DNA of 47,651 nucleotides, taken from assembly GCA_965372445.1 (NCBI GenBank), contig CBDVCJ010000001.1:1-47651 (forward strand). The letters are read 5' to 3'. The position numbers were made by a program, and so were the translations under genes. Source of the DNA: an uncultured Thermoplasmata archaeon. GTDB lineage: Archaea > Thermoplasmatota > Penumbrarchaeia > JAEHCK01 > CBDVCJ01. Below are positions 22,105 to 41,752 of this stretch, one piece after another (position 1 is the first letter of the stretch; each line of letters starts with the position of its first letter). The notes under the pieces were generated by a model, which was given only the letters and a program-made list of their open reading frames with translations, made no database searches and was not told where the DNA came from.

Positions 22105-22169
22105 GTAATCGGAATAATAATAACTGTTTGGAGAATATAAAATTTGTGGTTTGTTACCCTTTTTAAAAA

Positions 22170-22231
22170 GGCGACAGGCGAAAGGCGAAAGGCGAAAGGC
22201 GGGGCCGACAAGCTTTCGTCTATCGTCTTTC
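22170..22231. repeat. (GGCGAMA)x4 heptamer array facing CTTTCGTCTATCGTCTTTC (family C)
   Basis: Heptamer units are at 22170, 22177, 22184 and 22191. The complementary arm is 22213-22231. Its two mismatches are G:T on the + strand. Confidence 0.85.
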
Positions 22232-22262
22232 AAATTAAAACAATTTAACCGCAGATGCCTCA

Positions 22263-23315
22263 TTAATCACATAAATTCAACTTCAACTTCGCCGCGACCC
22301 CAACGGCTTTTGTATATTCGGTCAATTTCAACCGCCTATCTATATCGTCGTGGTCGAACGCGTGCCATTCCGGGTGGTACTGGTCCATAACATTCACACG
22401 CACCCTCGAGGTATCTAAATTTGCCGCGAGCCATTTCAGTATCGGTTCAGAACAGCACTCGATATGGTTCGGCAGTACCAAGTGTCTTACGATCATCTCG
22501 GTTTGCGAATTCGCAAGTTTGTGGTTGCGGCTGACGATCCCCCAATAATTTTTAACATTCGATAATCGCTTGCCGCATTTATTGTTGCCGTATTTAAAAT
22601 CCGTTAAATATACGTCGATCACCCCATCGAGCAACTTCATCGCCTCTTGGGTGAGATACATATTGGAATTCCAGACCTGGGCGATGTTCTTGTTAGCGTA
22701 GGTCAGCACCTCGAGTATGAACGCAAGATTGCTCGTAGGGTCGCCACCGACCCAGTTTGCGTTACGCGCACGTGCGCCAATATCCTTCAACATCCTCGCC
22801 ACGATCCGCGGCGCGATCTCGAGGCCGCCGGTCGGGTTCTGGCTGATGTCCCAGTTCTGACAGAATACGCAATCGAACGTACAGCCGGCAAAGAAAAAAG
22901 TATAGGAAGGCACAAGCTCAGATTCCTCGCCATGATGTAAAAACTCGGATGAGATCCGCGAGTTGCCGACCCCGCAATGCCCTAATTGGTCAGGCCGGGC
23001 AGCTTTGCAGCGACGCTCGCAAAATGTGCACTCACGAAAGATACGGTTTGCGAGCTCGAGCTTAAGGTCCAATAACGAAACCTTTGGCGATCCAACCTCT
23101 TGGGGGTCTGTCTTGTTCTTGAGCTTCAGATCTCCCTTGAATCTATTGTAATATGTCGCCAAAGCCCGGTCATGTTCGCTCCACAGCTCATCAATAGCAG
23201 CATTTAAATCCAATTTGACCGGTAACAATTTAGCTAACCTATATCTTGGTAAAGCCTCACCATTAATGATCGCGTAATATCTGGGCAATGCACGTTTGGC
23301 AGCGTTCTCGAACAT
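22263..23315 (-). CDS. Radical SAM enzyme, PflX-like (putative glycyl-radical/activase family)
   Basis: 350 aa with the CxxxCxxC cluster motif CTFDCVFCQN. The layout resembles COG1313-type proteins. Confidence 0.85.
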   Translation of the reverse strand: MFENAAKRALPRYYAIINGEALPRYRLAKLLPVKLDLNAAIDELWSEHDRALATYYNRFKGDLKLKNKTDPQEVGSPKVSLLDLKLELANRIFRECTFCERRCKAARPDQLGHCGVGNSRISSEFLHHGEESELVPSYTFFFAGCTFDCVFCQNWDISQNPTGGLEIAPRIVARMLKDIGARARNANWVGGDPTSNLAFILEVLTYANKNIAQVWNSNMYLTQEAMKLLDGVIDVYLTDFKYGNNKCGKRLSNVKNYWGIVSRNHKLANSQTEMIVRHLVLPNHIECCSEPILKWLAANLDTSRVRVNVMDQYHPEWHAFDHDDIDRRLKLTEYTKAVGVAAKLKLNLCD

Positions 23316-24393: not shown

Positions 24394-24556
24394 GCACCCC
24401 CATATATAAACCGCAGAGTACGCAGAGGACGCTGAATTAAGGTGAGGTCTAGGGACGCTGCCTAGAATTTATTGGGTTATTTTTACTAATAATTCCTACT
24501 TCAATATATATTCAGCGTTCTCAGCGACCTCAGCGGTTTAATAATGGGGGGCGGGG
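24394..24556. repeat. Nested palindrome, family D (CGCWGAG 9-mer arrays) with C5/G6 outer layer
   Basis: AAACCGCAGAGTACGCAGAGGACGCTGAAT (24408-24437) faces ATTCAGCGTTCTCAGCGACCTCAGCGGTTT (24510-24539). The outer layer is GCACCCCCATATAT vs ATAATGGGGGGCGGGG. Confidence 0.85.
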
Positions 24557-24647: not shown

Positions 24648-25187
24648 TCAATCTCGGTAAACAAACTCTTCCCTAAAAACAACCTCTCCTGTCTTTAAGT
24701 AAACAATCCACACTTCGATAATGTCGCCATCTATTATGTTCTGTGCTTGAAGCTCTGGGGGTGCATCGAAACCTATACTTTCGGTTTCTTCCCACCACTC
24801 ATCAGGGGGTGGACCCGTTACGTCATAAGTTATGTTGCCATCCTCAGGCCATTTAAGTGAAACTGGCATTTCTCCTTCCTTACACACTCTTATTATGTAA
24901 TCCTCCATGTTTACACGATTACCTGCGCCTTTTGTTAGTACAAATAGGCATCCGTTGGAAATATTATCATCACCTTGCCTCAATTCTGCCACCATTATCT
25001 CTATTGTAGGAGGAGTTCGTGTCCAATGTCTAAATGATAAAAAAGTTATAAAAGCGGATAAGATAATAAAAATTAATAATATTGCCAAAACACAAATTCC
25101 TAACTCTTTTTTGTTAAATTCTTTTGCCCCATCTCTATTTTCTTGGGCCTCTGAATTTTGAACTTTAGGATTTTTCATGGGTTTCAA
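24648..25187 (-). CDS. Small N-terminally anchored membrane protein (paralog 1), function unknown
   Basis: 179 aa with one TM helix and a ~110-aa ectodomain. It is clearly homologous to the neighbouring disrupted gene (shared ...WPEDGN..., IGFDAPP, GD.IEV...GEV). Confidence 0.6.
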   Translation of the reverse strand: MKPMKNPKVQNSEAQENRDGAKEFNKKELGICVLAILLIFIILSAFITFLSFRHWTRTPPTIEIMVAELRQGDDNISNGCLFVLTKGAGNRVNMEDYIIRVCKEGEMPVSLKWPEDGNITYDVTGPPPDEWWEETESIGFDAPPELQAQNIIDGDIIEVWIVYLKTGEVVFREEFVYRD

Positions 25188-25919: not shown

Positions 25920-25977
25920 TTGAATGATAAAGGGTTTACTATTTATTATTTTCTAAAAACTAATGGACAATTCAACA

Positions 25978-26525
25978 GAAATCCCAAACTCAAAATATGT
26001 CAAGGTTACGTCCGACGGTTACGAAGCCCGTAGGGTTAGCTTGACGACATACAGATATTAAATCTAAAGTCAAGATAAGCCCGAGGTCTTTGGACGAAGT
26101 CCAAAGTCCGTAGGCTTGAAGTCCATAAGGACGAAAGCCCTCGGGCATGAATGTGCCCGTGGGGTTGAAGACTGGAAGTCGAAACCCCGAATGCATTGTG
26201 CAGGGCTCAATGCATGTGTCGAAGCTCGCGGAACGGTTTCGAATTAACTTTTTCAATAAACAAAAAAACCGCAGAGTCGCAGAGAGCACAGAGTATAAAC
26301 TGATATTATGAAATCTATTCTCTGCGTTCTCTGAGCCTCTGGTGTTGAAGTCCGTAGGACGAAACACCTCAAGTAAAAAAAGTTAAAATCACCAAAATAT
26401 CATTTTTTACTTGTGCGGTTGGTTTTTTTGAAAATAATCAAACACGAACTTCATGTTTCTCTAATCATTTTAAAAATTAGAAATTGGGATTTTGAGTTTG
26501 TTTTGGATTTTGAAATTTGGGATTT
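25978..26525. repeat. ~550-bp composite of nested palindromes and short hairpins
   Basis: The outer pair is GAAATCCCAAACTCAAAAT (25978-25996) vs ATTTTGAGTTTG...TTTGGGATTT (26489-26525). Inside are CGTAGGGTTAGCTTGACGA (26029-26047), CTTTGGAC-gaa-GTCCAAAG (26088-26106), GGGCATGAATGTGCCC (26143-26158), ATGCATTG...CAATGCAT (about 26190-26215) and a family-D palindrome (26267-26346). Confidence 0.8.
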
Positions 26526-26549
26526 ATTATGCTAATCTGATGAATATTG

Positions 26550-29500
26550 TTATTCCCAATCGACATCCAGAAACTTATGGTTATTAGAGCCTTTTGAATC
26601 CTTTAACTCCGGCTCTTCGTCCTTATCCTTGTCCCAAGCGTCCTTTTCATCTTCTTCTACATCCCAATCCGCATCATCTTCCTCTTCGGCCGCGTCGTCC
26701 ATATCGTAAACCTCTTCTTCTTCCTCATCGTCATCGAGCCATTCGTCCTCATCTTCGTTCTCGTCTTCAGCGTCCATATCATAGACCTCTTCTTCCCCTT
26801 CATCTTCTTCATAGTGGTCTTCGGGCTCTTCTTCATCCAAGTGGCTCTCACGCCACTTAACCTTGTCACGCGGTCTGCGTCCTCTTCCACGACGCGCGCC
26901 AGGCCGGTGCCTGGGGCCTCCTCTGCGTCGAGGCCGATAATCGTCATCCAATTCGCCCATCATTCTCTCGGCTCTTCGGGCCCTGCCGTGGGGCGGTGGG
27001 GGGGGCGGCGGCGCTCGGTGAAGCGGTGGGGGCACAAGTTCACGATGTGCTCTTCGGCGGTTGCGGCGGCTGAGTACTACGCCAATCGCTATCAGGATTA
27101 TTAGAATAATAATGATCAAAACGATCCAAGGTATCACTTCGCTGAAATCGAATTCAGAAGATTCTTCATCGAACCGCACCTTTTGCTCGACCAAGGTCGA
27201 AGCATTGATCTTATCCCTGTGGCTAGCATCTCCTTCTGAATAAATTAAAACCGAGAGATTAAAATAACCAGGATCAAAATCCTCTGGGATGAAGATCCTC
27301 AACGTCTCAGTCCGTTCCTGGCCCGGGGCAAGATCATATTTGTGCTTTAGTGGGAAGTGAATGTTATTTTTCAAGCTCGCTGGGATACCGATAACTTCTC
27401 GATAGATCCCGTCTTGGCCATTGCCTGAATTTTTGATCGTGATGTTATAATGCACTTCTTTATTCGGTGCCGTAGATTTTTCGGCATCCTCCACCTCAAG
27501 CTCAACATCGAAAAGCTGTATCACTGTCACCCTTATGGGTATTGTATCAGTACTTTCATCCCCCAGCAAGGTACCAATGATCTCCATTTCATATTCACCG
27601 GCATTGCCGCTGGCATAGGATGTAACTGTAACTATTTCCTTGATAGAGCTGAACGCATCGACCGTGAAGATCTTGCCCATCTCACCCACAGAGGTTTTCC
27701 AATCTTTTGGAAGGTCGATAATTGATAGATTCACAAGATCAACGTCGTTACCATCATTAACGATCTCAACCTCAAATTTGGCCGAGATGCCAGGGTCGAC
27801 CGTATATTGGGTCACAGCACAGTTGATCTCAAAATCATAGGTGCGTTCTACTATTGCGGTCATGTTGATATCTTCAGTTGAGCCATCGCCATCCAGCGTG
27901 GCGTCGATCGAGATATTGTAACTGCCGGCTAATACATGCTTAGGTGCGATCACAATGAGGTCGACATAAGTATCGTCAAAGGGACCTAATATTATATCTT
28001 CGGTTCGTGTCAACTTGATGTTCCAATTCTGGGGTTTCTTGATAAATCCCAGATCCACGGAATCTACACCATTCCCTTCATTATCGATATATATCCTATG
28101 TTGTACAGTATCCCCGCCCTCTATTGTGAATGTATCAACAAAATAGGTCACGTTAAAGCCAAAATAACGGTCTATTGTAGTTACTGTAACAATTGTGGTC
28201 TTACTGCCGTCGCCCATGAGTTCTACGATGGCCTCTACAAGATAGGTACCTGCAAGTTCATCGTCGGGAATTCCGAGCTCAAGAGTTATGACTTCGCTAT
28301 CATAGGGGTCGATCAGGAAATTATCTTCGTGGCTGAAATCCATTGTCCAGTTCTGTGGAATGTTATTCAAGGTGACTTTAATGATGTCCACACCATTGCC
28401 TGTATGGTTGATCTGAATATTATATTCGACCATATCGCCAGGCTCAACAGTGTATTCTCTATTCTCACAAAAGACCTCGACGCCATAAACACGGTTAACG
28501 GAGCCAGTGATCGCAAGAGTATCATTAAAATGACTAAATGGATCTTGCAATGCGCCTAATGCATTTATTGGGTAACTGCCCTCCAGGGTTTTGTCAGGTA
28601 CAGTAATATTAAGATAAACGACCTTGAATTTATGTGGATCGATAGTGAGATCTTGGATAACCTCATCCTCATACACAAAATTCATCACCCATTCTTCGGG
28701 TGCGGCAGGTGTTGTGAAGTCAATTATGTCGATATCATTACCATGGTTCCACACTACGATATCTACTAATTCATTCTGGCCCGGGTCTAATTTGAAGGTG
28801 TAGCTGGTATCGGCCTTTAAATCGAGCTCGACACCGTAAATACGGTTCACTGTGGTGTGGGTTGTGATTGAAATGGTCTTATCTTTATTCTTCGAGAAAT
28901 AGGCAAACACATCGATCGCGCCAACTGTATATGCAAGTTCATCTGCGGGTACGGTCACATTTAGTGTGATCGTGATATTGGTATCTGGGTCGATCTCGAT
29001 CGTGCTTTGGTTCAGCTCGGCGGTCCAACCGGACGGTGTGTTGCCGACATATAATTTAATTGTGCGGGTCAATTTGCCGTTGTTCGAGAGTGTGACCTCA
29101 TAACTGGTCGATTCACCGGGGTCTATATTACTTGAATTATCTTCACTGGTGAGATTGAAGAACTTGATAGGTAAGCCGCCCACAGATAATGAGGGATCAC
29201 CGAATAGAATGTATTCCACAATGGTTTTATAATCTGCAAAATTCGGTGTGCCGATATTTCTCAGGTAATCCAATTTAGCGGCGTCCAACATCTTACCGGC
29301 AGTAGAAATACCATCATCGTAATTCTTGTACAATCGGACATTGAAATAGCCGGAATATCTGGAAATGTGTGCTGCGCCCCACATACCATATCCAATACGG
29401 GACGCGCCAATACTTGTAATTGCACCGCCATTATAATTCAAAACCACATCTTCGGCGATACAATCATTAGAATCGAACGCGCCAGTGAGACACGCGTCAA

Positions 29501-31058
29501 AATTAAGGAACGGTAATTTATAGCCATTTGTCAACCCCAGCGCATCAGCGCCCGAGAACTTGCCCGCCCAGCTGTCGATATTACCGTGGTCGTGGAAGGT
29601 TGCGAAGCCTGAACCTTTGTTCAGGGTGCTAACAATATCACTTTTGGTACATGTGCCGAGGCTTTGATATAACTTGGTCTGGACAAAATCCGTGAGATAA
29701 TTATCACCGATATAATCTGCTGCGTATTCACCTTCATAAACACCGCTACCTTCATTAAATGTATCTAACCCCACGAGTGTCGCGTTCTCGAACCATATAT
29801 CGGCAGCGGCGTTAAGTTCATAATAGATGATCTTATCAACGAACATCTCCACATCGAAGGTCGTGCTTGCCGGCAGTCGTCCTAAATATACATCCGGGTA
29901 AAGGTCGGCATGATCGATATCCTGGTTGCTATTTGCATTATATTCGCCATAGATCCCATCACCGTCCAGATCCCAATCATCGAAATTCATCTGTGAATCG
30001 TAAAAATCGGCAAAATACAGGTCTGAAGGTACATCGCCGTCGCCCTCACCAATAATAATTGCTTTTCTATATGGCATCTTATCAATGTCACCAACTAATA
30101 TAACATAGGTGATATTCCAATTCTCTTTAGCATTATAGATGAAATATTTTATCTGTTCCTGCTGATCGACACCCTGCTTGGGGAAATATACGCCAGTATC
30201 AATATCTGTAAGGGTAACGATCTTTGCCTCGATCGAGGTGTTCTTTTTATGATCCACCAGCGGTTGAAGTGCATTAACGAACCCAGCAGGTGTAATTATC
30301 AACAGGTCATATTCTACTAATGACTTTGGGTCAGATCTATCCGCATTTCTATTACCATTAACATTGCTAAGATCACTGGGTAATTGATATTTTATCTCGA
30401 AATCGGCTGATCTTAGATGTTCAATAATATCAATTGCAGGCCGATATCGAACTGGGTATATATTGACAGACAGAAACAGCGTGATTTCATCGGTTTCAGG
30501 GTCCAGGCCCATGCCAGTACGATAATCGAACCATTTGCTGGGGTAGAGTTCTGAAGAGCTGTAGATATCCTGGTTTGGTCTGATGAGTCTCAACGGCCCG
30601 TAATCGACGCTTATTTCATCTTCCGGATAATATTCAAGCTGGCTGATCGGGTTTGGGGTCTGAGAGGGTACGACCTTTTTCGTGACTTTCATTGAAGAGG
30701 GTATTTCTGGATAGAAATCTACCGATAATATTTCCGTGCCGGGCTTGAATTTGAATTGCTGGTTATTATACGGCAGCATCGGTTTGCCAAACCCACCATT
30801 TACGAGGCCCGAAGCACCGTCAATATAAATTTTCAGATATTCATCTGCTTCCTGGGTCGTGGGTTCATTAAATGTCATTGCGACTTTCTTCACCATAACC
30901 TCAGGGTTACTATCCAGCTCGGTTGGGCGAGCTTCAAGATTATCTTGAGTGGTGGTCGAAAAATCGGTACTGCCGACCCAAAGGGTTCCACTTGAAGGTA
31001 TTGCAGCTAATGTTAGCGAAATTAAGATAATTAATACTAATATAACTTTTCTCAGCAT
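26550..31058 (-). CDS. Membrane-anchored C25 (gingipain-like) cysteine peptidase with ~7 CARDB/NEW3-like repeats and a long charged tail
   Basis: 1502 aa with a signal peptide. C25-like motifs are LLIITPAGF, YVILVGD, SDLYFADFYD, His motif FHDHGNIDSW and Cys motif FDACLTGAFD. About seven ~105-aa beta-sandwich repeats follow (Y.V...N.GN..D...W). After the TM helix come P7, an Arg-rich stretch and then a D/E-rich tail ending in LDVDWE. Confidence 0.85.
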   Translation of the reverse strand: MLRKVILVLIILISLTLAAIPSSGTLWVGSTDFSTTTQDNLEARPTELDSNPEVMVKKVAMTFNEPTTQEADEYLKIYIDGASGLVNGGFGKPMLPYNNQQFKFKPGTEILSVDFYPEIPSSMKVTKKVVPSQTPNPISQLEYYPEDEISVDYGPLRLIRPNQDIYSSSELYPSKWFDYRTGMGLDPETDEITLFLSVNIYPVRYRPAIDIIEHLRSADFEIKYQLPSDLSNVNGNRNADRSDPKSLVEYDLLIITPAGFVNALQPLVDHKKNTSIEAKIVTLTDIDTGVYFPKQGVDQQEQIKYFIYNAKENWNITYVILVGDIDKMPYRKAIIIGEGDGDVPSDLYFADFYDSQMNFDDWDLDGDGIYGEYNANSNQDIDHADLYPDVYLGRLPASTTFDVEMFVDKIIYYELNAAADIWFENATLVGLDTFNEGSGVYEGEYAADYIGDNYLTDFVQTKLYQSLGTCTKSDIVSTLNKGSGFATFHDHGNIDSWAGKFSGADALGLTNGYKLPFLNFDACLTGAFDSNDCIAEDVVLNYNGGAITSIGASRIGYGMWGAAHISRYSGYFNVRLYKNYDDGISTAGKMLDAAKLDYLRNIGTPNFADYKTIVEYILFGDPSLSVGGLPIKFFNLTSEDNSSNIDPGESTSYEVTLSNNGKLTRTIKLYVGNTPSGWTAELNQSTIEIDPDTNITITLNVTVPADELAYTVGAIDVFAYFSKNKDKTISITTHTTVNRIYGVELDLKADTSYTFKLDPGQNELVDIVVWNHGNDIDIIDFTTPAAPEEWVMNFVYEDEVIQDLTIDPHKFKVVYLNITVPDKTLEGSYPINALGALQDPFSHFNDTLAITGSVNRVYGVEVFCENREYTVEPGDMVEYNIQINHTGNGVDIIKVTLNNIPQNWTMDFSHEDNFLIDPYDSEVITLELGIPDDELAGTYLVEAIVELMGDGSKTTIVTVTTIDRYFGFNVTYFVDTFTIEGGDTVQHRIYIDNEGNGVDSVDLGFIKKPQNWNIKLTRTEDIILGPFDDTYVDLIVIAPKHVLAGSYNISIDATLDGDGSTEDINMTAIVERTYDFEINCAVTQYTVDPGISAKFEVEIVNDGNDVDLVNLSIIDLPKDWKTSVGEMGKIFTVDAFSSIKEIVTVTSYASGNAGEYEMEIIGTLLGDESTDTIPIRVTVIQLFDVELEVEDAEKSTAPNKEVHYNITIKNSGNGQDGIYREVIGIPASLKNNIHFPLKHKYDLAPGQERTETLRIFIPEDFDPGYFNLSVLIYSEGDASHRDKINASTLVEQKVRFDEESSEFDFSEVIPWIVLIIIILIILIAIGVVLSRRNRRRAHRELVPPPLHRAPPPPPPPHGRARRAERMMGELDDDYRPRRRGGPRHRPGARRGRGRRPRDKVKWRESHLDEEEPEDHYEEDEGEEEVYDMDAEDENEDEDEWLDDDEEEEEVYDMDDAAEEEDDADWDVEEDEKDAWDKDKDEEPELKDSKGSNNHKFLDVDWE

Positions 31059-31287
31059 TGAAACAACGCTCCTATTATTTTTACACTATTCACTAAAACC
31101 ATTAAATTTTATATATATTAATAATTTGGGGGATTTTATGCATTTTTAATCTTGTTATATATCACTTATTTATGAATAGCCAATTATAAAATGTTCTTTC
31201 GCATAATATCATACTTAAAATCATTATATATTCTTTTCGGAACTTTGTATCTATAATCTTTCAATTGTTGGTATATAAGGTATGGAT

Positions 31288-31779
31288 ATCGGTTGCGGTG
31301 TCGAAGCTCGTATCGTTAGGCGGTTTGGAAGCTCGGCAACAATAGTTTTTAGTTTACAGTCTGGGGTTTGCAGTTTCACTTATTAAAAATAAAAGCCTCA
31401 AGAGGTTGGAAGTTACTATTAGATATTGATATACAGGTTAAAGTTAGGAAGCCGGTATGGAAATTAGGTTATGAAGTTGGTATTGAAGTTTGAAATTTGA
31501 TATTAGGTAGAAGCCCAACTTCTTAACCTCTAGACCACACAGGCTCTTTCAGGTTTCAATGATTTATTTCAGAGCCTTTATGGTTTCGTCCTATCGGACT
31601 TCAACCACCCTGGCCTCATAACCTTAACCCAACATCCAACATCGTAAATAATTCCTATTCAATTAAGGGGGTACTACAAACTAAAAACAACAAACTGCAA
31701 ACTTATAATTATAGTATAAATTTTCGAAACCGCCTTGACCAGCTTCGAGACGCGCATCGAAACCGCAACGGTAACCGAT
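31288..31779. repeat. Largest nested palindrome (~490 bp, at least 3 layers)
   Basis: Layer 1 is 31288-31336 vs 31721-31779 (shared blocks ATCGGTT, GCGGT.TCGA, AGCT, AGGCGGTTT). Layer 2 is AGTTTGY heptamer arrays, 31343-31376 vs 31671-31704. Layer 3 is GGTTA/GAAGTT arrays, about 31404-31500 vs about 31515-31645. Confidence 0.85.
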
Positions 31780-31877
31780 AAAGATAATGATTTTCTTAAA
31801 AAATTGAAATAAAAACTTTAAATTGATATTATTGTATTCAGATGATATTGAGCTTAGATAAACAGGGATAGTTATTC

Positions 31878-32591
31878 ATGAAAAAGGCATTCTTGCTGGA
31901 TTTCGAACTTAATAAACCCTTTACTTATATCGAAGATTTTATCAATATCCTCTCAAAATCAGATATTGAAATAGATATTTTTAATGTGAGTGATGCCGGC
32001 AAAGATAAAAAGTCGCCGCTTATGAATAAGATCGAAGCTTCTAATTTTTTAATACTGCGCAAACCTTTAACATTCCTGACCAGTGAATCTTCACGCGCTC
32101 ATATACGTGAAGCGGTAATGGAGGGCAATAAGAACTTACTAATAATTTATTCATTTAGCGACATAGATTCACTCGAGGTGCTGAACGATTTCATGGCGCC
32201 CTTAAACCTCCGCGCTTCAAGTTTGATGGTGTATGACGATAACAATAATTTTGAAAGTCGAAGAATCGTTGTGTTTCACAAAGCAAATGGCTGTTTTGTG
32301 CACCCGGAAGTGTTTAAAGGTGTGGAGAAGGTCGTAATACCGCAAGCCCATCATATTTTCATTACCAACCCCTCCAAAGCAATGATCCGCGGCAACCCAA
32401 CCACACGCACCCTGGGTACCACCGATATGCCGGTTGCCGGGGTTGAAGGTAGCGATATAATTGTTGGTGCTTACAATGAAGAATCCTCGAGAGTTGTAAT
32501 TATGGATTCTACGTTGGTTAATAATAAATATATCAGAGAAAATACGCGATTTGTCAAGAACATTATTAAATGGATAAGTGAAGCAGTTTGA
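31878..32591 (+). CDS. Hypothetical cytoplasmic protein (possibly DUF4350/GldG-like glutamine-amidotransferase-like fold)
   Basis: 237-aa ORF. The C-terminal pattern VVIMDSTLVNNKYI..NTRFVKNIIKWI resembles that family. This is a weak by-eye call. Confidence 0.55.
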   Translation: MKKAFLLDFELNKPFTYIEDFINILSKSDIEIDIFNVSDAGKDKKSPLMNKIEASNFLILRKPLTFLTSESSRAHIREAVMEGNKNLLIIYSFSDIDSLEVLNDFMAPLNLRASSLMVYDDNNNFESRRIVVFHKANGCFVHPEVFKGVEKVVIPQAHHIFITNPSKAMIRGNPTTRTLGTTDMPVAGVEGSDIIVGAYNEESSRVVIMDSTLVNNKYIRENTRFVKNIIKWISEAV

Positions 32592-32741: not shown

Positions 32742-32903
32742 TTATGGCCTGGCACCTTTTAAGTCCTTTTTGCGCTTGATCGTATCAATGAGTTTCGAAT
32801 AAATAAGGTCAAGAACCTTATCGCTCTCGGCTTTGCGCTGTGCGGCACGCTTTCTGAGCTCTTCTTCATCTACGATCTCGTGGATTTTCAAGCCGATAGT
32901 CAT
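32742..32903 (-). CDS. Candidate 53-aa small ORF (not in track), possibly ribbon-helix-helix-like
   Basis: The sequence is MTIGLKIHEIVDEEELRKRAAQRKAESDKVLDLIYSKLIDTIKRKKDLKGARP*. It is below the track length cut-off and its 3' end abuts the CAGTGCATC repeats. Coding status is unproven. Confidence 0.3.
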   Translation of the reverse strand: MTIGLKIHEIVDEEELRKRAAQRKAESDKVLDLIYSKLIDTIKRKKDLKGARP

Positions 32904-33195: not shown

Positions 33196-33933
33196 ATGCT
33201 TGATCATTTTCTGTACTTGATCCCAGACCCTGAGCATTGGTTGATCTACAGCCCTATTGGCGTCATCGTACTAATTTTAACTGCCTACAGCTCCGGGTTT
33301 TTGAAGCTCAAAGGTTATTTAAAAACAAATTACACACGCAAGCTCTTTCATTTCATAATTTTCACAGTTGCGGGTATCATCGGCATTTTCAGCGGGCTAA
33401 AAGGTGTAATTGTATTTGGCAGTGTCGCCGGGATATTTATTATGGTAACGATCAATTTAGGGATTGGCAATATCTTTTATGAAGGTCTTGCACGAGAACA
33501 GGATTCACCGCACAGGTCATTTTATCTGATCGTACCTTTTGTGGCAACTGCCTGTGGTGGGCTGGTGAATAATCTATTTATCGGTCAATTTGCGGTCATT
33601 GGGTATCTTGTCGTCGGTTGGGGCGACGCCGTCGGCGAGCCTATTGGCGTTAGGTTTGGTAAACACAAATATAAAGTACCGACCGTTGTTAAAGTAGTCT
33701 GCTATCGTTCACTCGAAGGCTCATTTGCGATCTTTATTGTTTCCACTCTAGCAATTTCAATGATTCTGATAAATGTCTTCAAAACCACAATATTAATTGG
33801 CCTATTAATAGGTATAATATCAGGGCTCATTACCTGCATAGTCGAGGCAATATCTCCACATGGTATCGATAACTTTACCACCCAATTCTTTTCCGCTTCT
33901 TCGGCTTATTTTTTTATGAATTATATTTTTTAA
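33196..33933 (+). CDS. CdsA-superfamily membrane protein, polyprenol (dolichol/phytol) kinase-like
   Basis: 245 aa, multi-TM, with motifs YTRKLFHF and GWGDAVGEPIGVRFGKHKY typical of CTP-dependent polyprenol kinases and cytidylyltransferases. Confidence 0.7.
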   Translation: MLDHFLYLIPDPEHWLIYSPIGVIVLILTAYSSGFLKLKGYLKTNYTRKLFHFIIFTVAGIIGIFSGLKGVIVFGSVAGIFIMVTINLGIGNIFYEGLAREQDSPHRSFYLIVPFVATACGGLVNNLFIGQFAVIGYLVVGWGDAVGEPIGVRFGKHKYKVPTVVKVVCYRSLEGSFAIFIVSTLAISMILINVFKTTILIGLLIGIISGLITCIVEAISPHGIDNFTTQFFSASSAYFFMNYIF

Positions 33934-36900
33934 ACGATTGGGTTCTTACATTCCGGACAAATGAACCAACCATCTTTTATAGGGGTGCCACAGTTCGAGC
34001 ATTGTCCTTGTTCATCACCTTCACTCTCTGCTTCAGAACTATCAGCATCGCCCCCAGAATCCTCAGAGCTCTTGACTTTAGGCGAACTCTTGATCTTGGG
34101 CTGCTTTAATTTAGGTGTTTTTGGCGCGACGGGTTCTGATTCCGAAGCGGGCGGTAGTTTCGCCTGTAGCTCATCGCCTATGCCACTGGTTGCCGCCGGC
34201 GGTGGCAAACTTAATTCGGGTTGCGCCTGCTCGACTGGAGCCATCACTGGCTGCTCTGCGGTTGCTTCCATTTCGTAAGCCGGCTGGGTCTGCTGGGCAT
34301 ATTCAGGGCTTTGCTGCATCGACATTTGCATGTATTGTTGCTGATATTGTTGAAATTGGTCGGGCTGCATTTGTGCATATTGCTGCATATATTGTGCAAA
34401 TTGCTCGATCGTGAGCGTTGGATACATTTGTTGATATTGTTGATACATTGCATACTGCTCTGGTGTCAATCCCCCGTATTGCTGGTCGGGTTGCGCGGCA
34501 GCCCCCGCAGGCATCATCATCCCAGGCGCACCAGCCGTCTCAACACCGGCATAAGCGTAACCATATCCACTACTCGCCGCGGCTTGGGCAGCGATCTGTT
34601 CCATTTCAGCCTCTTCCTCGGCCTCTTGCTCCTCACGCCTCTTTTTGAGAAATAAAAATGCAACTACAAATATAATAACCAAAACGATCACGATGCTAAT
34701 AATTATCCATTCAAACGGGAACCCAGCACTTTTATCGCTATCATCACCGCGTTTTGAGGTGTCTGGAGGTATTACTGTTATGGTCTCACTTGTGGAATTA
34801 GATGCACCATACAAATCCACGACCGTTAATGTGACCGTGTATTCACGGCCTTCCTCAAAGGTCCAGAGTACCGTCTCACCTTCTGCGTCTTCATCGTCGG
34901 TACTTCCGTCGTCCGCATCAAAATCCCAATAATAATCAACTGTATCACCGTCCGGATCAACAATATCCAAAGCTTCAAAGGTCCAGGTTAGATTCTCCTT
35001 GGTCTTTCGTGTGTCCGGGTCCGAATCTTTGGTAAATGCATTGAGGTTGGTGCTTGAGACTATGGGCGGGTCATTTTGGTTCTTGACCGAAACATTCACA
35101 ATCAACCAATCAAAAGATTTTAAATTATCTTTTACCGTAATATTTATTGTCGCATAACCAAGCCTGCCATGTTCCGGAGTTGGTGTAAATGTTACATCCA
35201 TTGCAAAAATATTCTCATCCAGATCGGTTTCATCGACATTTTCAGTTAAGCCAAACAATTTATTGTTATCCGTTGAAAATTCGATCTCATCATCCGGGTC
35301 CATTTCTCTTGCTAATATAGTGAAAGTATATTTTTGATGTTCCGTCGCTTCATTTTCATCCTCAAGCACGATCTCGTTAGTATCTTCATCTATCTCCTCG
35401 TCGTAAATTCCTTTCTTAACTTGGAAAATCAATGGTGCATCATTAACATTTTTCACTTCTATGATGATTTTTATTTTGTCAAAATAATTAATTGAATCCG
35501 TTACTCTGACCTCAGCTTCAAAATCACCGACATCCTCATTTGTGGGCTTGAATGAGATATTGGCTTTCGTGGGGTCAATTTTATCCTTTTTCACTGTGAA
35601 TTTCTCCTCGGGTGTAACTTTGAAACCCAATATATCGCCCAAGGGTGTTGACATATCATCATCCTTTGCCACAACTGTAAAATTATAATATTTATCTTGT
35701 TTTACATGATCTGAAAGTTCTACGGTATCTTGACCTGAAGTCACAGTGTCTATTGTGATCCCGTGTACGAACTTTGCAATCACTGGCGCATCATTTGTAT
35801 TGGTGATCTCGAAAATTACATCCACGGTCTTTATATTGTTCTCTGAATAGCCGTCGTCGACCTTAATTTCAACATAATGTATACCCACATCCTCATTTTT
35901 TGGACGGAATGAAATGTAGCCAGTCCCAGAGATAATGTCGAACAGGGTCGTGTTGTCCGAGTAGGTCAATGCATCACGCTCAACCGGGTCGTAGGCTGAG
36001 ACTGTCACGTTAATATATACATCCTCTTTGCCCTTGACCTTACCCGATGTAATATCTGGCGGCGGTATTGAAAACCCAACTTTCCATTCGGTAGTGTCAT
36101 TGATCACTGGGGCGTCATTTACCGAAGAAATTACGACTATGATCGAATGATGTACAAACTCAGACGAGGTATCTGTTGCATTTAGCTGGATCGTGTCTGC
36201 ACCGAATTTATTGGATTTCGGTGTGATCTCCACAGAATCGTTCACCAGGATCTCCGCCGTGATCCAAAGACTGTCATAAGGCTGTACCTCGTTCCAGACG
36301 GTTCCGGTCCAGATACTGAATGTAAGTGTATCACCTACATCCTGGTCGCCGAAAATGCTATTAAGATCGATGTAGCGCGTCGGGTCGTCCTCGTTAAAAT
36401 TAATATTTTCGACTGCACCTGTTTTTATGTGCGGTTTGTAATTTGATATATAGGTCACCTTAATTTTCGGGCGTTCGGAAGCGGTTGTATGGTCCGAAGT
36501 GCGCAAGAATTTAATTGCAGCTGCGCCTCCGGATCCAATAATTAATGCACCGTAATTATCTTTTGTGCCACCGTGCCAATCTGCCGCCAGCTGAGAAATA
36601 TCCCAGGTGTACCAACCCACCCCCGTCACCGAGGTGCTGCCCGACGAAGCGGTATCATGGTCGCCGCCGGGTGTATCCCAGCGTGTAGTACCATCCGTTG
36701 TGTTCCAATTAACACCGCTATCTATGATCGCGCCCGTTGACGTCCCATCACCTTCAATCCAATCTTTGTTAACGCGGTAAATATCCATTGTAAGTGCGTC
36801 TCCTGTAGGTGCATTATGACAATAAATCTCCAGATCGGCTTGTGTGATATCAGCGTCTTGCGGCAAACTTGAAAAGCCGAACTGTATTATGCCTCGGATG

Positions 36901-37997
36901 GGCTGGCTTGAGGAATCCAGGGTAATCCAAAATTCAGGGTCGGCACCGATATTAAACCTTCGCTGATCTTGACCGCTTGTACTTTGACCGGTAATAAGGA
37001 ACGAATCCTTACCATCAAGCGGTCCGGGTTGGATAGTGTCAGTCGTAGGGTCAATAACAACCGGATACTGCCGTTCCGGCGCCACAAGCCACGAGTATGG
37101 CGTTTTTATAGAAAATAATATTCTGTTTTTAATTAACGAATATTGTGCTTGCAAATCGTATTGGCATTCAACAGAATTAAACGAATTGGATTGTTCATAC
37201 GCAACCGGTGCGGGGATCCTGAAAACACCTTCATTATTTTCGTCTCGGAACTCGATCTCCGAGGAGGTCGTTAATGCTTCACCATTTAGAACTAATTCTT
37301 CGTTATCAATATATAATGATAAGCCATCCGAGTATTCGATATATCCATAATAATCAAGTGTAAGTTTATCATTTGACGCATCATATGCTGCCAACTCCTC
37401 CGGGGAATTGGTGAGCAATATGTTGTGTTTCAATTTATTTAATCCGACGACATATTCATCAATGGTATTTGGAAATGCATTCGTAAAGCTAATTTTATTC
37501 TCCTCTATTTCGGCACCAACGTCGTTAACAATCGCACCGAATATCGGGGCGCCATTTGTATCTACAATCGTCATCCCGAGAGGTTCCCATGTTAACCAAT
37601 CATTATCGGCCGCAGTCTTCACGGTCTGGGTTGTCTCCGCGTAATCATTACTGAAATATGCCTTCAGGCCATTCTCCTCACATGCGAAATCGTAATCATT
37701 TGTCGGGTCCTCGTAAGGCCGAATCGTTGTATCTATTTCCTGCCAATTACCTGTATCATCTTTATAATGGACAGGTCCGATATAGATCTCGGCGGTTGTT
37801 GTTCCGTCCGGGTTAGGATAAAATTTTGCATTGCTCGTTCGCATTGATATTTGTTCGAGTTCATTATCATTCAGTTTAATCTTAGTTTCCAGCAAATCTT
37901 TTGGGTTTTCAAAACTCGTAAGTGCATTAACTGTTGGTAATAAAAATGTCAATACTACCAGAATACCCACTAACAATCTAATGTTCGTATTATTCAT
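33930..37997 (-). CDS. Giant single-pass surface protein: DNRLRE-like module, cadherin-like repeats, PKD, TM helix, Q/M-rich tail and zinc ribbon
   Basis: 1355 aa with a signal peptide. One module reads ADLEIYCH...MDIYRVNKDWIEG...VNWNT (tentatively DNRLRE-type). About five repeats end in NDAPV/NDAPL/NDPPI. A PKD-like module reads DPDGDTVDYYWDF...TVTLTVVDLYG. After the TM helix the tail is QQYQQMY...QQYQQQYMQM and ends in CSNC-x12-CPEC. Confidence 0.85.
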   Translation of the reverse strand: MNNTNIRLLVGILVVLTFLLPTVNALTSFENPKDLLETKIKLNDNELEQISMRTSNAKFYPNPDGTTTAEIYIGPVHYKDDTGNWQEIDTTIRPYEDPTNDYDFACEENGLKAYFSNDYAETTQTVKTAADNDWLTWEPLGMTIVDTNGAPIFGAIVNDVGAEIEENKISFTNAFPNTIDEYVVGLNKLKHNILLTNSPEELAAYDASNDKLTLDYYGYIEYSDGLSLYIDNEELVLNGEALTTSSEIEFRDENNEGVFRIPAPVAYEQSNSFNSVECQYDLQAQYSLIKNRILFSIKTPYSWLVAPERQYPVVIDPTTDTIQPGPLDGKDSFLITGQSTSGQDQRRFNIGADPEFWITLDSSSQPIRGIIQFGFSSLPQDADITQADLEIYCHNAPTGDALTMDIYRVNKDWIEGDGTSTGAIIDSGVNWNTTDGTTRWDTPGGDHDTASSGSTSVTGVGWYTWDISQLAADWHGGTKDNYGALIIGSGGAAAIKFLRTSDHTTASERPKIKVTYISNYKPHIKTGAVENINFNEDDPTRYIDLNSIFGDQDVGDTLTFSIWTGTVWNEVQPYDSLWITAEILVNDSVEITPKSNKFGADTIQLNATDTSSEFVHHSIIVVISSVNDAPVINDTTEWKVGFSIPPPDITSGKVKGKEDVYINVTVSAYDPVERDALTYSDNTTLFDIISGTGYISFRPKNEDVGIHYVEIKVDDGYSENNIKTVDVIFEITNTNDAPVIAKFVHGITIDTVTSGQDTVELSDHVKQDKYYNFTVVAKDDDMSTPLGDILGFKVTPEEKFTVKKDKIDPTKANISFKPTNEDVGDFEAEVRVTDSINYFDKIKIIIEVKNVNDAPLIFQVKKGIYDEEIDEDTNEIVLEDENEATEHQKYTFTILAREMDPDDEIEFSTDNNKLFGLTENVDETDLDENIFAMDVTFTPTPEHGRLGYATINITVKDNLKSFDWLIVNVSVKNQNDPPIVSSTNLNAFTKDSDPDTRKTKENLTWTFEALDIVDPDGDTVDYYWDFDADDGSTDDEDAEGETVLWTFEEGREYTVTLTVVDLYGASNSTSETITVIPPDTSKRGDDSDKSAGFPFEWIIISIVIVLVIIFVVAFLFLKKRREEQEAEEEAEMEQIAAQAAASSGYGYAYAGVETAGAPGMMMPAGAAAQPDQQYGGLTPEQYAMYQQYQQMYPTLTIEQFAQYMQQYAQMQPDQFQQYQQQYMQMSMQQSPEYAQQTQPAYEMEATAEQPVMAPVEQAQPELSLPPPAATSGIGDELQAKLPPASESEPVAPKTPKLKQPKIKSSPKVKSSEDSGGDADSSEAESEGDEQGQCSNCGTPIKDGWFICPECKNPIV

Positions 37998-38240
37998 TTA
38001 CTTGCCTCCAATAAATTGTCCTTATTACCCCCGGCCTGAAGGCCGGAGCCCATTATTTTTCATGTACCTAAATTACCTCATTAACTCAAATGTTTGAAAT
38101 TTGACATGATATTAATTTGCTCTTAACTCACTGGCCTAAAAGACCAGGGTTTCTAAATGTCTTGTAAACATATCTCCAATGGTATTTATTATTAGGGTTA
38201 GATTTTATTATTTAATGAATTTATCTGTTAAATAACACCT

Positions 38241-38684
38241 TCATGCAACCTCCATGCCAGATGAGGTTGTACTTTTGCCTTTATCTTTTCTTTGGATATT
38301 GATCTGTGGTAACGGGAACGGAGGTGGGAGCTTAAGATCGCGCGAGATCATTGTGGCTTCGGGTACACAGGTGCGCATGACCGCGGTATGAATTTCAGAT
38401 GCGATCTCATCCGGCATATTTGCTTTGGTACTCCATTGCTGAGCCAACGCCGCTGCATCGCCTTCATAGATCAAAGAACCTTCGATCTTGATCATACCTA
38501 CCCCGCCGTAATTCGCAGTATATCTGAAATCGATATTTGCCTCCTTGTCATTGATCTCAGTTATTAATGTAACTGTGCTATTATTATCGATCCTTATATT
38601 TCGCACTTTTTCATCACGTTTGGTAAACCTCCGCGCTTCGACCGAGGTTAATTCTAGGGCTTTAATTGACATATTCATACACAT
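38241..38684 (-). CDS. Hypothetical protein (weak SecB-like pattern)
   Basis: 147-aa ORF. The likely start is at MSIKALEL (38672). The C-terminal CVPEATMISRDLKLPPPFPLPQINI is reminiscent of the SecB CP..LFPYARE......FP.L.L.PVNF region. This is a low-confidence by-eye call. Confidence 0.5.
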   Translation of the reverse strand: MCMNMSIKALELTSVEARRFTKRDEKVRNIRIDNNSTVTLITEINDKEANIDFRYTANYGGVGMIKIEGSLIYEGDAAALAQQWSTKANMPDEIASEIHTAVMRTCVPEATMISRDLKLPPPFPLPQINIQRKDKGKSTTSSGMEVA

Positions 38685-38863
38685 CCAAATAAACTAGTTT
38701 TTTTAGCTCCCATGTTTAAAATTAACATTAAGTAAAGGCGATTTTATTAATAATATTTACTATACCACTTTAAAGTTATTGGTAATATATAAAAGTTAGG
38801 GACTTATGTGATGGCATAAACCTGGATTTAATGTACTAATGTCTGTGGTTAGTAAGTCTAAAA

Positions 38864-39183
38864 AGTTGTGAGTGTCCGTGGGATTGCTATTTTTACGCCA
38901 GAGGATGTGGGATTGCTTTAAGGTTGCCATTTGATGTGGGATTACCATTTAATAACCTGATGGTGTAGGATTGCCATTATATTGATAAAAGACATTGGAC
39001 TGTTTAATTAAACAATAACTTCGTGAATCAAACGAAAAACACTCCAACGCATCAACAAAATGGCAATCAGTTCCCACACCCAATGGCTAAACTTGACAAT
39101 CCTACACAATTTAGCAAATAGTTAGCAATCCTACACCAATGGACGAAATTTTAACAATCCCACTTGGAGCTATTATAACAACT
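38864..39183 (+). repeat. Family-B phased inverted-array element, copy B3
   Basis: The left terminus is AGTTGTGAGT (38864-38873). Forward cores start at 38878, 38907, 38936, 38965 and 38994. Reverse cores start at 39043, 39072, 39100, 39129 and 39158. The right terminus is degenerate (AACAACT, 39177-39183) and abuts the arcS stop at 39185. Confidence 0.9.
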
Positions 39184-39184
39184 G

Positions 39185-41053
39185 TCACGTATGGTGTCGG
39201 ACCTTAACCGCCACCCCGCGTTTACTTCTTAATATCTCAGGTGTGCTCATTACCGCTTTGCCCACACCCCGAAGCTCGTCTTTATGTAGTATCACAACCT
39301 CGTCCTCAATTCTGATATCCGGATCAGCATCGGTAATACCCACCGCCATCACGCTGCCTTTTGGCTTGAAATCGTCAATTTCCACCCAAAAAGAATGGCT
39401 GGCCGCCAAAACCTTTGCGCCTTCCAGTGTAAGTGAAATCATACCGCGCTCGGCGATCAGCATCCCCAGCTGTTCTTTGCCGCAAAATATTTTCAGATAA
39501 GGATATTTTCCTTTGATCGTGATCTCACGGTCTTTAAAAAACCTTTCACCTATCTCGCCAAATTGAAACTTCAATATATTCACCATATATTCCTTCAACC
39601 GTTCCTGCTGTGGAATATGCTCATATTGTTGGGCAACTTCAGTTAGGTTTTTTGCCAAATTCATAAGCGCGCTCTGGGACGTTGGGTGTGAACCGTTGCA
39701 AGTTTTTATAATATCAATATCCAGAGTTTGGAATAGCTGCTCCACGATCTCTAATAACTCACCGTTGAGATGCACAATGATATTATCATATCGGTTATTT
39801 TCAATAAACCACTTCAGATCCTGGTCGATCATAGCCTTCTCCGAATGGTCCCAGGCTCCTGAGACCGGGATATCGTATTGTTGGGCCGGATAAAATAATT
39901 CTAACTCACGCGGTACCACCCCCAACGGAGAGGTCAGTATTACCTCATGAACCACACTTGGATTTGCAGAACTTATTAATGCCTGCCTGAACAATTTATG
40001 CGATCTCGAGCTGGAATAGGGTTTACGGGCAGAACAAGGAAGCAACAACAATATCTTTGACGCAGAGGGTTTATTATATCGTGCTTTCAATCGATCTCTA
40101 AACCTTTTCACCTCTGGTCGCCCGATCGCTCCCGACGATACGGCAATGAGTCTCGAACGGCGCATTATAGGCAAATAGAGCTCTTGAAAGTCATAATACT
40201 CCAGATCACCGATCTTCAAAACCGTGGTGAGCCACGGCTCGGATATTGCCCGCTGCTCAACGAGCTCACGCAGCGAGCCGTTGTTAATTGCAGTTCTGAT
40301 AGTCCCTAATTCGGATAAGGCAGAATAATAATTGTGATGAAGTATATGTTCAAACCCGAATTTTTCCGGATCACCGGTTTCCGCAGCGTTACATGCCGGG
40401 CAATAGCAAAATCTTCCACCCTCATAAATAGCATCTTTCGAATATTTACCATTATTATTTAGTAAAACACCATCTCGTGCATTCAAAATTAATCGGGTCG
40501 TATCGATGAGGTCAATTCCACAATAAATTAATAATGCCAATTGGTTTGGCACCCCAATTGCTGGTGCATAAAGTGGTTTGTGATAACCAATGGCCTTTTT
40601 TACCTTGATGACGGCCTCCACAAAACCACGCGGGTTGCGAAGCAATTCGATCGCATTACCCAAAACATATAGTTCCGCATTCGGGTTGATCTGGTCGGCT
40701 AAATCTTCGGTCGAGTAGTTATGGATCATATAAACATCAGTTTCTTCTGAATATTCCTCTTGGTCATCAAACAATTCATTACAGCTTAGGGGATAGCCCA
40801 AATCTGCCGGTATGGTCAATTCCGGGTTGCCGATCGTGTCCTCCTCCAAATCGGTGCTGAACTTACTGCCCGAGTCAATAATGTATGGCTTATTTGTTTG
40901 GAGGCTATGGTCTGCAATAAAAATATCGGCCTCTGAGAATGGCTTGAACCGTTCTGAGGCTATAAAAAATATATTCGGAGTCGTGATCGTTGTATTTCTA
41001 AGGCTCCAATTAGCAACTCTACCAAGCCCGTCACGGTTAGTTATCTCGAACAC
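39185..41053 (-). CDS. arcS: Archaeosine synthase (ArcTGT paralog, TgtA2 type) with C-terminal PUA domain
   Basis: 622 aa. The N-terminus MFEITNRDGLGRV is TGT-like and the Zn motif CYCPAC...H is present. LLPCSARKPYSSSRSH fits the PC-x3-KPY-x2-S-x2-H motif reported for ArcS. The C-terminus is PUA-like. Confidence 0.75.
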   Translation of the reverse strand: MFEITNRDGLGRVANWSLRNTTITTPNIFFIASERFKPFSEADIFIADHSLQTNKPYIIDSGSKFSTDLEEDTIGNPELTIPADLGYPLSCNELFDDQEEYSEETDVYMIHNYSTEDLADQINPNAELYVLGNAIELLRNPRGFVEAVIKVKKAIGYHKPLYAPAIGVPNQLALLIYCGIDLIDTTRLILNARDGVLLNNNGKYSKDAIYEGGRFCYCPACNAAETGDPEKFGFEHILHHNYYSALSELGTIRTAINNGSLRELVEQRAISEPWLTTVLKIGDLEYYDFQELYLPIMRRSRLIAVSSGAIGRPEVKRFRDRLKARYNKPSASKILLLLPCSARKPYSSSRSHKLFRQALISSANPSVVHEVILTSPLGVVPRELELFYPAQQYDIPVSGAWDHSEKAMIDQDLKWFIENNRYDNIIVHLNGELLEIVEQLFQTLDIDIIKTCNGSHPTSQSALMNLAKNLTEVAQQYEHIPQQERLKEYMVNILKFQFGEIGERFFKDREITIKGKYPYLKIFCGKEQLGMLIAERGMISLTLEGAKVLAASHSFWVEIDDFKPKGSVMAVGITDADPDIRIEDEVVILHKDELRGVGKAVMSTPEILRSKRGVAVKVRHHT

Positions 41054-41218
41054 AATGAATCACGAGTGGCAAATGGTAATCATTGTTTTTATAATTTCTT
41101 TTTAAAATCCAATGTCGGGGTGCGAATGGCGAATACTATTGAAGAATATTTCCAATATTCAAATACTACCAATACTACCAATGAAATCCCAATGGCAAAA
41201 TTCCAAGACCCAAGCTTT

Positions 41219-41274: not shown

Positions 41275-41278
41275 CCGT

Positions 41279-41731: not shown

Positions 41732-41752
41732 ATTAACGCCCCGTTTCAGATA

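Follow-up and report, generated by a model that had tools for sequence, protein, structure and literature searches.

Several described repeat families share parts of the architecture reported here. Foldback (FB) elements of Drosophila carry long inverted arms of tandem subrepeats, vary in arm length and include non-autonomous copies, and the central segment of eukaryotic Foldback elements is variable or absent. Pneumococcal BOX elements are modular, intergenic and hairpin-forming, with a varying number of boxB copies in a fixed A-Bn-C order and a single layer. Here we describe a nested palindrome at positions 31281-31780 of a 47,651-nt contig from an uncultured Thermoplasmata archaeon (CBDVCJ010000001.1, assembly GCA_965372445.1; the whole stretch is referred to as the window), together with related palindromic blocks in its other spacers. 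Among prokaryotic systems, repetitive extragenic palindromes (REPs) and bacterial interspersed mosaic elements (BIMEs) bear a conserved GTAG or CGTC tetranucleotide at one palindrome end (PMC3733652). The GGGAATC heptamer arrays of Xanthomonas occur at 70-75 sites as convergent inverted pairs capable of forming hairpins and differ strongly between close relatives, and bacterial heptamer simple sequence repeats (SSRs) have been attributed to polymerase slippage (PMC4692102). Short tandemly repeated repetitive (STRR) hairpins are common between cyanobacterial genes and have been proposed as transcript stabilisers (PMC2670836), and long terminal inverted repeats with multiple binding sites are reported elsewhere (PMC3688188).

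By analogy, the blocks in the window resemble BIMEs, STRRs and foldback elements in the way they may work. Like BIMEs and REP doublets forming hairpins (REPINs), they are intergenic, multi-copy and assembled from few palindromic modules in alternating orientation; they lie between housekeeping genes with no transposase nearby, and their small hairpins (family B below) hold their pairing by compensatory change. BIMEs join REPs of 20-40 bp by fixed linkers. Here, in contrast, subrepeats of 7-9 nt or 25-29 nt are arrayed along the arms in up to 4-5 nested layers over 130-580 bp, the GTAG/CGTC tag is lacking, no REP-associated tyrosine transposase (RAYT) was seen in the window, and an archaeon is the host. 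In their tandem heptamers with G-rich units, placed in intergenic DNA, the blocks recall the STRR and Xanthomonas arrays, and the 'convergent' layout of the latter matches the usual G-rich 5' arm of the window palindromes (PMC4692102). Those systems, however, use one or few units per genome in a single layer, whereas here dozens of units are arranged concentrically, accompanied by non-array hairpins, and composites are dispersed whole. Subrepeat arms, varying arm length and a variable centre are also features of eukaryotic Foldback elements and foldback-type MITEs (miniature inverted-repeat transposable elements); eukaryotic Foldback elements have transposase partners and target-site duplications, neither of which was found here. 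BOX, Correia, RUP and ERIC elements are likewise modular intergenic hairpin repeats, but BOX shows no sequence similarity to the present modules, lacks heptamer periodicity and has a fixed order and one layer. The searchable literature yielded no comparable multi-layer repeat for Archaea, nor does it describe the concentric multi-layer mix of many different units in an archaeal host, which is what appears new here.

A nested palindrome between two divergent genes

The imperfect palindrome at 31281-31780 is set in an 819-bp spacer between two divergent genes, a peptidase on the minus strand (26550-31058) and, on the plus strand, a gene of unknown function that encodes 237 aa (31878-32591). The initial annotation, made from the sequence alone, had described a layered palindrome of about 490 bp at this place; the repeat finder recovered three layers over slightly wider limits, and the folds of this interval reached z scores of -4.2 to -7.5. 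The main stem (31287-31780) contains 109 Watson-Crick pairs in the minimum-energy fold with G-U pairs forbidden. The minimum free energy (MFE) as RNA was -145.7 kcal/mol for the plus strand (z -5.0) and -164.3 kcal/mol for the minus strand (z -7.5), and as DNA -69.5 kcal/mol (z -4.2), with none of 100 shuffles matching the observed energy. Base identity at a lag of 7 nt was 0.371, compared with 0.26 in shuffles (z 5.7). The palindrome is therefore real and far above chance. Stems were taken from constrained MFE folds; a stringent einverted-like dynamic-programming search stopped past the outer two layers, and self-BLAST at E<=1e-3 misses most of these degenerate palindromes. Its components are as follows.

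31204-31265 (plus strand): conserved flank block outside the repeat, TATA-like ATTATATATTC followed by TTTCGGNNNTTTGTATC
31281-31342: outer layer, left arm; two copies of a unit of ~25 nt, GGTTNCGG...GAAGCTCG (repeat finder, constrained fold)
31343-31377: middle layer, left arm; five degenerate AGTTTKY heptamers of module family G (phasing, repeat finder)
31436-31481: inner layer, left arm; left arm of module family D
31482-31533: innermost hairpin and apex, in place of the 44-bp apex of the stand-alone family D copy; GAAGTTGG ... CCAACTTC, TTGAAAT heptamers (repeat finder, Tandem Repeats Finder (TRF), constrained fold)
31534-31584: unmatched side hairpin in the right half, AGGCTCT...AGAGCCT (repeat finder, RNA and constrained folds)
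31582-31606 (minus strand): small recurrent hairpin module, YTTGAAG-stem-loop-CGAAAR
31602-31643: inner layer, right arm; right arm of module family D
31671-31705: middle layer, right arm; five RMAAACT heptamers (TRF period 7, 4.4 copies; phasing)
31706-31780: outer layer, right arm; two copies of a TCGAAACCGC-containing unit (repeat finder, constrained fold)

The arms are rather degenerate, and the layers are spaced by AT-rich unpaired connectors. As the initial annotation had noted, pairing is imperfect and interrupted by indels: the outer layer is 74-92% complementary (31281-31336 against 31721-31780), and the right arm bears two side hairpins without a partner, at 31534-31584 and 31582-31606. 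The inner arrays of the GGTTA/GAAGTT type (31436-31505) face both 31511-31545 and 31602-31643. The inner layer, formed by 31436-31481 and 31602-31643, copies family D, which stands alone at 44889-45022. Its left arm is 86-89% identical to the left arm of that stand-alone palindrome and 76-78% identical to the right arm, while its right arm, which pairs with 31436-31462, is 80% identical to 44983-45022; the 44-bp apex of the family D copy has been swapped for 123 bp of other hairpins. The left-arm module of the middle layer recurs at 46933-46975 and in L001, a relative of the window, and the corresponding right arm is 94% identical to L001 1540-1605. The outermost layer is orthologous on the left to L001 and L004 and on the right to L001 and to L008 CGTAACCGTTTGCYGTAACC.

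The flank block adjoins the left end of the palindrome and is kept in the window, L001, L003 and L004 and partly in L002; it could act as a promoter directed into the palindrome, or as a site through which the peptidase gene is regulated. Its element TTTCGGNNNTTTGTATC was considered as a flank motif common to palindromes and rejected, with 9 matches against 7.5 expected and no recurrence at the others. Open reading frames (ORFs) of 26-42 aa within the palindrome were treated as spurious.

Palindromic blocks fill the long spacers of the contig

Palindromic blocks, fifteen in number, account for 4,614 nt (9.7%) of the contig; base identity at lag 7 peaks in them at 0.343, compared with 0.25 in coding sequence, and TRF reported ~20 period-7 arrays. 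Spacers of at least 140 bp gave fold z scores from -3 to -19, while 16 coding controls centred on ~0, and the short AT-rich spacers of the window contained no palindromes. All nine long spacers that had been listed as sharing this construction fold as long hairpins, and the analysis added blocks at 1641-1849, 9986-10054, 13997-14451, 18027-18574 and 38830-39184 as well as a half element at 1-194. Besides 31281-31780, the following were delineated.

1-194: half element at the contig edge; family B core, then AAATCTC and CAATCCT heptamer arrays
1641-1849: palindrome between convergent genes, family B core
9986-10054: further palindromic block
13997-14451: family A foldback, copy 1; GYGTRGGATTGCCATT units ~29 nt apart, outer GAGTCC and AAAGGCG arrays
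16013-16260: palindrome between divergent genes, GAAAGGC and GGGAATC heptamers
18027-18574: family A foldback, copy 2
19262-19434: palindrome whose family F outer layer has the opposite orientation to the 43-kb copy; GAAGATA heptamers
24394-24556: palindrome with C5/G6CG4 and CCGCWGAGN 9-mer arms (family C)
25970-26545: palindrome of ~575 bp; TTTGGGA-type outer arms enclosing many small hairpin modules
38830-39184: family A foldback, copy 3; the orthologous spacers of L002 and L011 are without it
41145-41450: palindrome; arms of CCAAT/CCAAG heptamers enclosing a tandem pair of family B double hairpins
41753-41967: palindrome of the GGTTTCG/CGAAACC type
42921-43223: palindrome; outer family F layer, CCAAG arrays, family B core
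44889-45022: stand-alone family D palindrome, 134 bp
46884-47243: multi-layer palindrome; GGGATTC, AGTTTGT, C6GC6, family C 9-mers and GGGTGTA heptamers

The statement that every gene between 38 and 47 kb is separated from the next by such a structure was nearly right; the spacer at 37998-38240 has none (z -0.4/-1.6), and the 41-kb spacer is divided in two by a 78-aa gene (41495-41731), each part with its own palindrome. That gene (minus strand) and a 53-aa gene at 32742-32903 (minus strand) are small conserved genes within seemingly long spacers; the gene calls of L002 include the two of them, and those of L001 the 53-aa gene.

Selection for structure is an unlikely explanation of the blocks, but one with evidence on both sides: cruciforms or RNA hairpins could serve as insulators, transcript-end, mRNA-stability or protein-binding sites, with the architecture constrained and the sequence free. 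It would accord with the transcript-stabilising role proposed for cyanobacterial heptamer hairpins (PMC2670836). Against it, palindromes are found in divergent, convergent and tandem spacers alike, 31281-31780 sits between two promoters, and there is no surplus of terminator-like sites: hairpins with a GC-rich stem and a T-run directly behind it numbered 0 in 31000-31950 and 5, against 9.3 expected, in 38000-47651. The suggestion that these are bidirectional terminators of the bacterial type accordingly finds no support, as the element has no such site and lies between divergent promoters rather than at 3' ends.

The G-rich arm is the 5' arm on both strands in 9-10 of 14 window palindromes. 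A G5-6-N-G5-6 motif or its complement stands as a thin layer by itself in several palindromes belonging to different genomes (window 85-97, 24545-24556 and 46975-46987; L001 ~1600; L007 80-93; L002 ~14590).

Module families and their dispersal

Module families were derived from an all-against-all comparison of 13 kb of spacers. The blocks are made of tandem 7-9-nt arrays, 25-29-nt units and small REP-like hairpins; in each block a module on one arm has its complement on the opposite arm, and a GGATT, TTGGA or TGGGA core is common to many array units. These modules recur among the window's spacers and in the loci of relatives, contrary to the possibility that the spacers might be unique. Four families are defined briefly.

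Family C: CCGCWGAGN 9-mers
Family D: 134-bp palindrome at 44889-45022
Family F: GTGGCAAGATGGGGCGGTGG
Family G: AGTTTGY heptamers

Family A is a foldback element of ~350 bp with copies at 14034-14409, 18075-18422 and 38855-39163 that are 66-71% identical to one another. Its arms carry GYGTRGGATTGCCATT cores every ~29 nt, and its asymmetric centre is the best-conserved part. Left arms are 61-71% identical to left arms and right arms 58-70% to right arms, compared with 48-57% between left and right; in family D the corresponding values were 89% for left-left and 76-78% for left-right, the right-right value (83%) not being distinct. The arms of families A and D thus group by side rather than by locus, which indicates that the palindromic units predate dispersal and were copied between loci whole.

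Such side-specific clustering argues against a purely local origin, in which slippage makes heptamer arrays, fold-back priming or strand-switching inverts them layer by layer, and nothing moves between loci. This account, which we regard as quite unlikely, does gain from the attribution of bacterial heptamer SSRs to slippage (PMC4692102), from near-perfect symmetric palindromes such as that of L002 (below) and from the usual 5' position of the G-rich arm on both strands; it is opposed by whole multi-layer composites whose homology from one locus to another extends to the asymmetric centres (14 kb against 18 kb).

Family B, a 60-nt double hairpin whose individual hairpins measure ~21-32 nt, occurs five times in the 47.6 kb, in every case close to the middle of a larger palindrome. 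Compensatory double changes affect 7 of 20 pairs, and an A-run and a T-run flank hairpin 1 in a manner that would give oligo-T on both strands; both features count in favour of selected structure. A small hairpin, TTGAAG...CGAAA, has five matches in the window against 0.23 expected, four of them intergenic (26116, 26165, 26345 and 31584), and is also found at L002 9700 and L011 4525-4551; the match at 24747 lies inside the ORF 24648-25187 and is no intergenic module copy. By inspection, a K-turn reading of this hairpin was discarded, its internal loop being without the 3-nt bulge and tandem G-A layout. Inspection likewise led us to reject family A as an array of replication-origin recognition boxes (ORBs), there being three copies in 47 kb and no ORB-like sequence.

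Persistent occupancy and replaced interiors in relatives

Syntenic loci were found by protein identity in several independent assemblies, giving ~150 kb of clade DNA for comparison. Every relative that has the peptidase/237-aa gene pair has a palindromic spacer between the two, and its content varies. In L001 and L003 (peptidase 79% identical), the flanks, the outermost layer and the AGTTTGY layer are in common with the window, and the inner 290 bp of the window are replaced in L001 by a 73-bp unpaired array of the TTTGGGA type. Two contigs from one sample, L004 and L008, both end inside the orthologous palindrome; their flanks are 96% identical to L001, yet the outermost layer alone is in common. 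L002 (68% identical) has a near-perfect (TAAGGCAC)5...(GTGCCTTA)5 palindrome, L007 has heptamers of yet another kind, and the more distant L009 (41% identical) has a plain AT-rich spacer. The presence of a palindrome in this spacer in five independent genomes favours selection for structure. The outer layers being orthologous and the inner ones replaced, with the inner layer of the window a copy of a stand-alone palindrome, supports the initial alternative that elements became nested within one another.

An assembly artefact arising from chimeric or collapsed palindromic reads is very improbable. Short-read contigs do break within such regions, as in L004, L008 and the left end of the window, but the L004 left arm is complementary to the L008 right arm on a separate contig, and independent assemblies from NCBI, ENA, JGI and Logan have homologous palindromes at this site, bordered by conserved flanks. 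Moreover, the arms are imperfect, with indels and unmatched branches, whereas an artefact would give perfect inverted duplicates.

At other sites, both presence/absence and replacement were observed. Each of the five orthologous spacers compared with L011 is palindromic and strongly structured in the one genome as in the other, and four of the five have been replaced; the sole homologous palindrome is that of family D at 44889-45022, and this pairing of general occupancy with a single homologous case again supports selected structure. Within that one alignable orthologous palindrome (window 44885-45026), there were no double changes, and the differences fell at consensus-unpaired positions. 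The site at 41753-41967 has GGTTACG-type palindromes in L002 and L011. Conversely, the palindrome at 41145-41450 is absent in L002, where a 48-bp spacer is found (L002 577-624), and a 335-bp (CCAATGN)n palindrome of L002 separates two convergent genes whose window counterparts share 4 bp (overlap 33930-33933). These two empty orthologous spacers weigh against a selected structure. The palindrome at 24394-24556 corresponds to a single unpaired 9-mer array in L002 (16328-16364), and that at 25970-26545 to a one-sided array only in L001 (6438-6602). Single arrays where a relative has the full palindrome favour in-place mutation and point to some contribution of local slippage and fold-back copying, which probably takes part alongside exchange between loci.

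The most informative comparison is that with L010. Part of the left outer layer (orthologous to window 19317) is preserved there at the 19.3-kb site, but the interior is that of the 43-kb-type element and includes a block identical at 62 of 63 positions to window 42935-42997. By BLAST, orthologous DNA of the two genomes shows only 83-89% identity; the sequence directly to the left of the site shows ~81%, counted from the alignment. This block, at a non-orthologous locus, is a recent copy between loci and contradicts an account in which nothing moves. Together, the side-specific arms, the homologous composites and the L010 block require copying between loci, to which local processes may add.

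Structure and 7-nt periodicity were absent in the more distant Thermoplasmata loci L009, L014, L005 and L006, which confines the phenomenon to one clade. Close relatives of the clade live without palindromes, a further point against selected structure. Among genome contigs, no relatives were retrieved through the 237-aa neighbour, and arcTGT retrieved two loci only, 34% identical and palindrome-free; the metagenome contig search returned one 1.1-kb match.

Tests against known classes

In agreement with the initial annotation, Pfam scans of the 28 window ORFs revealed neither a transposase nor a RAYT, and no insertion sequence elements were found in the window or the compared loci. The likeness to REP/BIME elements held as far as a mosaic of recurring modules is concerned; membership is not supported, given the arms of subrepeats, the lack of a RAYT in the window and the absence of GTAG/CGTC enrichment. 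Family B hairpins fall near the size of REP units, but subrepeat arrays account for most of the block sequence. GTAG occurred 30 times and CGTC 24 times in 4.6 kb (both strands), which is about the random expectation, and neither was among the enriched k-mers. The blocks share with foldback elements long inverted arms of tandem subrepeats, a variable centre and dispersal as whole units (families A and D), and with STRRs and heptamer SSRs the concentration of tandem 7-nt units in intergenic DNA. With regard to MITEs, inverted arms are present, and no target-site duplication was recognised at the L002/window presence-absence junctions, where the flanks are too diverged for one to be recognisable. 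A clustered regularly interspaced short palindromic repeat (CRISPR) array was rejected: the repeats run head-to-tail or inverted, with no regular repeat-spacer pattern. The palindrome at 31281-31780 had no match in plasmids and phages, nor did the module patterns in viral contigs.

A conserved structured RNA, another of the initial alternatives, found no support. Rfam gave no hits over the whole window at the gathering score, the spacer yielding two sub-threshold chance hits. Among small symmetric stem mismatches, GT numbered 12, AC 24 and others 98, so that the wobble-compatible ones (36 of 134) showed no excess, and older arms are only ~55-75% complementary. The lack of wobble enrichment and the low complementarity of older arms also tell against selection for hairpins.

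Interpretation as non-autonomous mosaic repeats

With moderate confidence, we interpret the blocks as lineage-restricted, non-coding, non-autonomous foldback-type mosaic repeats that turn over by the copying of modules into existing palindromes. They are probably selfish or neutral DNA rather than dedicated terminators or RNA genes, a lack of selected function that we infer from the comparisons above. On this interpretation, the blocks fill the dispensable part of a spacer, from the stop codon or promoter up to the next promoter. The overall interpretation in the initial annotation is thereby partly supported.

As for the copying mechanism, which we likewise infer, existing palindromes would take in copies of whole palindromic modules, mostly at their centre or close to it. 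One route would be break repair or gene conversion between dispersed copies with common arm arrays, which requires no transposase and produces no target duplication; another would be a hairpin-specific or single-strand-specific enzyme encoded elsewhere in the genome. Either would leave outer layers that are old and orthologous between relatives and inner layers that are young and strain-specific. A more specific proposal is tentative and, in our estimation, rather unlikely: the blocks may be a novel type of prokaryotic selfish DNA without a transposase of its own, in which a break or extrusion at the centre is repaired from an arm-sharing locus ('homing' into hairpins) or a hairpin-specific archaeal enzyme acts. 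Homing or such an enzyme would explain persistent occupancy with rapid turnover of content, the old outer and young inner layers and the 62/63-identical block.

Several observations weigh against the interpretation as non-autonomous mosaic repeats. Neither a mobilising enzyme nor a target-site duplication came to light, nor did a site that is cleanly empty in a close relative, and all orthologous spacers in the nearest relatives, L011 and L010, hold some palindrome. Such persistent occupancy could equally reflect selection for a hairpin whatever its sequence, and the compensatory changes of family B and the conserved centre of family A hint at constraint. The unpaired arrays (L002 16328-16364, L001 6438-6602) fit local inverted duplication or arm loss equally well, and copy numbers rest on the ~150-kb sample.

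Confirmation across the genome would make this the first system of mosaic palindromic repeats with multiple layers to be described from Archaea. In this Thermoplasmata lineage of sediments it takes up ~10% of a chromosomal region and changes faster than the neighbouring promoters. It would also offer a natural system for the creation, tolerance and reshuffling of palindromes in archaea (Mre11-Rad50, Hjc, replication slippage), supply very sensitive strain markers and be a likely cause of contig and synteny breaks in metagenome-assembled genomes (MAGs) of the clade. If the hairpins are selected, they would represent an archaeal counterpart of REP-type mRNA or insulator elements.

Contigs ending inside palindromes comprise the window (1-194), L004 (1-150) and L008 (1-110), and these repeats probably fragment short-read MAGs of the clade. 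Synteny between the window and L010 breaks at a palindromic spacer (L010 2603-3185, window 17987-18589), beyond which L010 has a 726-aa gene with no window counterpart; the L010 palindrome at the break differs, with GAGTCC arrays and three family B hairpins.

Genes and minor features of the contig

The window is a complete contig of a MAG, and proteins that fall into the same 90% clusters as orthologues of the neighbouring genes bear the label 'Thermoplasmata archaeon'. Its gene content is chromosomal, with housekeeping functions and surface proteins: CysRS, PEP synthase, FtsZ, riboflavin genes, PyrBI, endonuclease V, arcTGT, a CetZ-like tubulin and the 1502-aa C25 peptidase. Repeats touch the annotated limits of two genes. 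An (AAAGGCG)5 array at 22167-22201 lies inside the annotated 5' end of ORF 19525-22263, whose true start is probably downstream of the array, leaving a short repeat-bearing spacer; the same unit is found at 14437, 16072 and L001 107-138. The TTG start of the ARMT1-like ORF 41978-42994 overlaps the palindrome at 42921-43223, and the 288-aa length of the L011 orthologue places the real start near 42844.

Two ORFs of unknown function contain in-frame tandem repeats, at 13771-13874 (period 27/21 nt), the 3' end of ORF 12988-13992 (plus strand), and at 45048-45202 (period 36-39/75 nt), the 3' end of ORF 45034-46839 (minus strand); the C-terminal tails encoded there are probably of low complexity and rich in Pro or Gln. 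The C25 gingipain-like peptidase (26550-31058) and a PKD/CBM96/disaggregatase-repeat protein (33930-37997), both very large and either secreted or at the surface, fit the lifestyle of protein-degrading Thermoplasmata in sediments.

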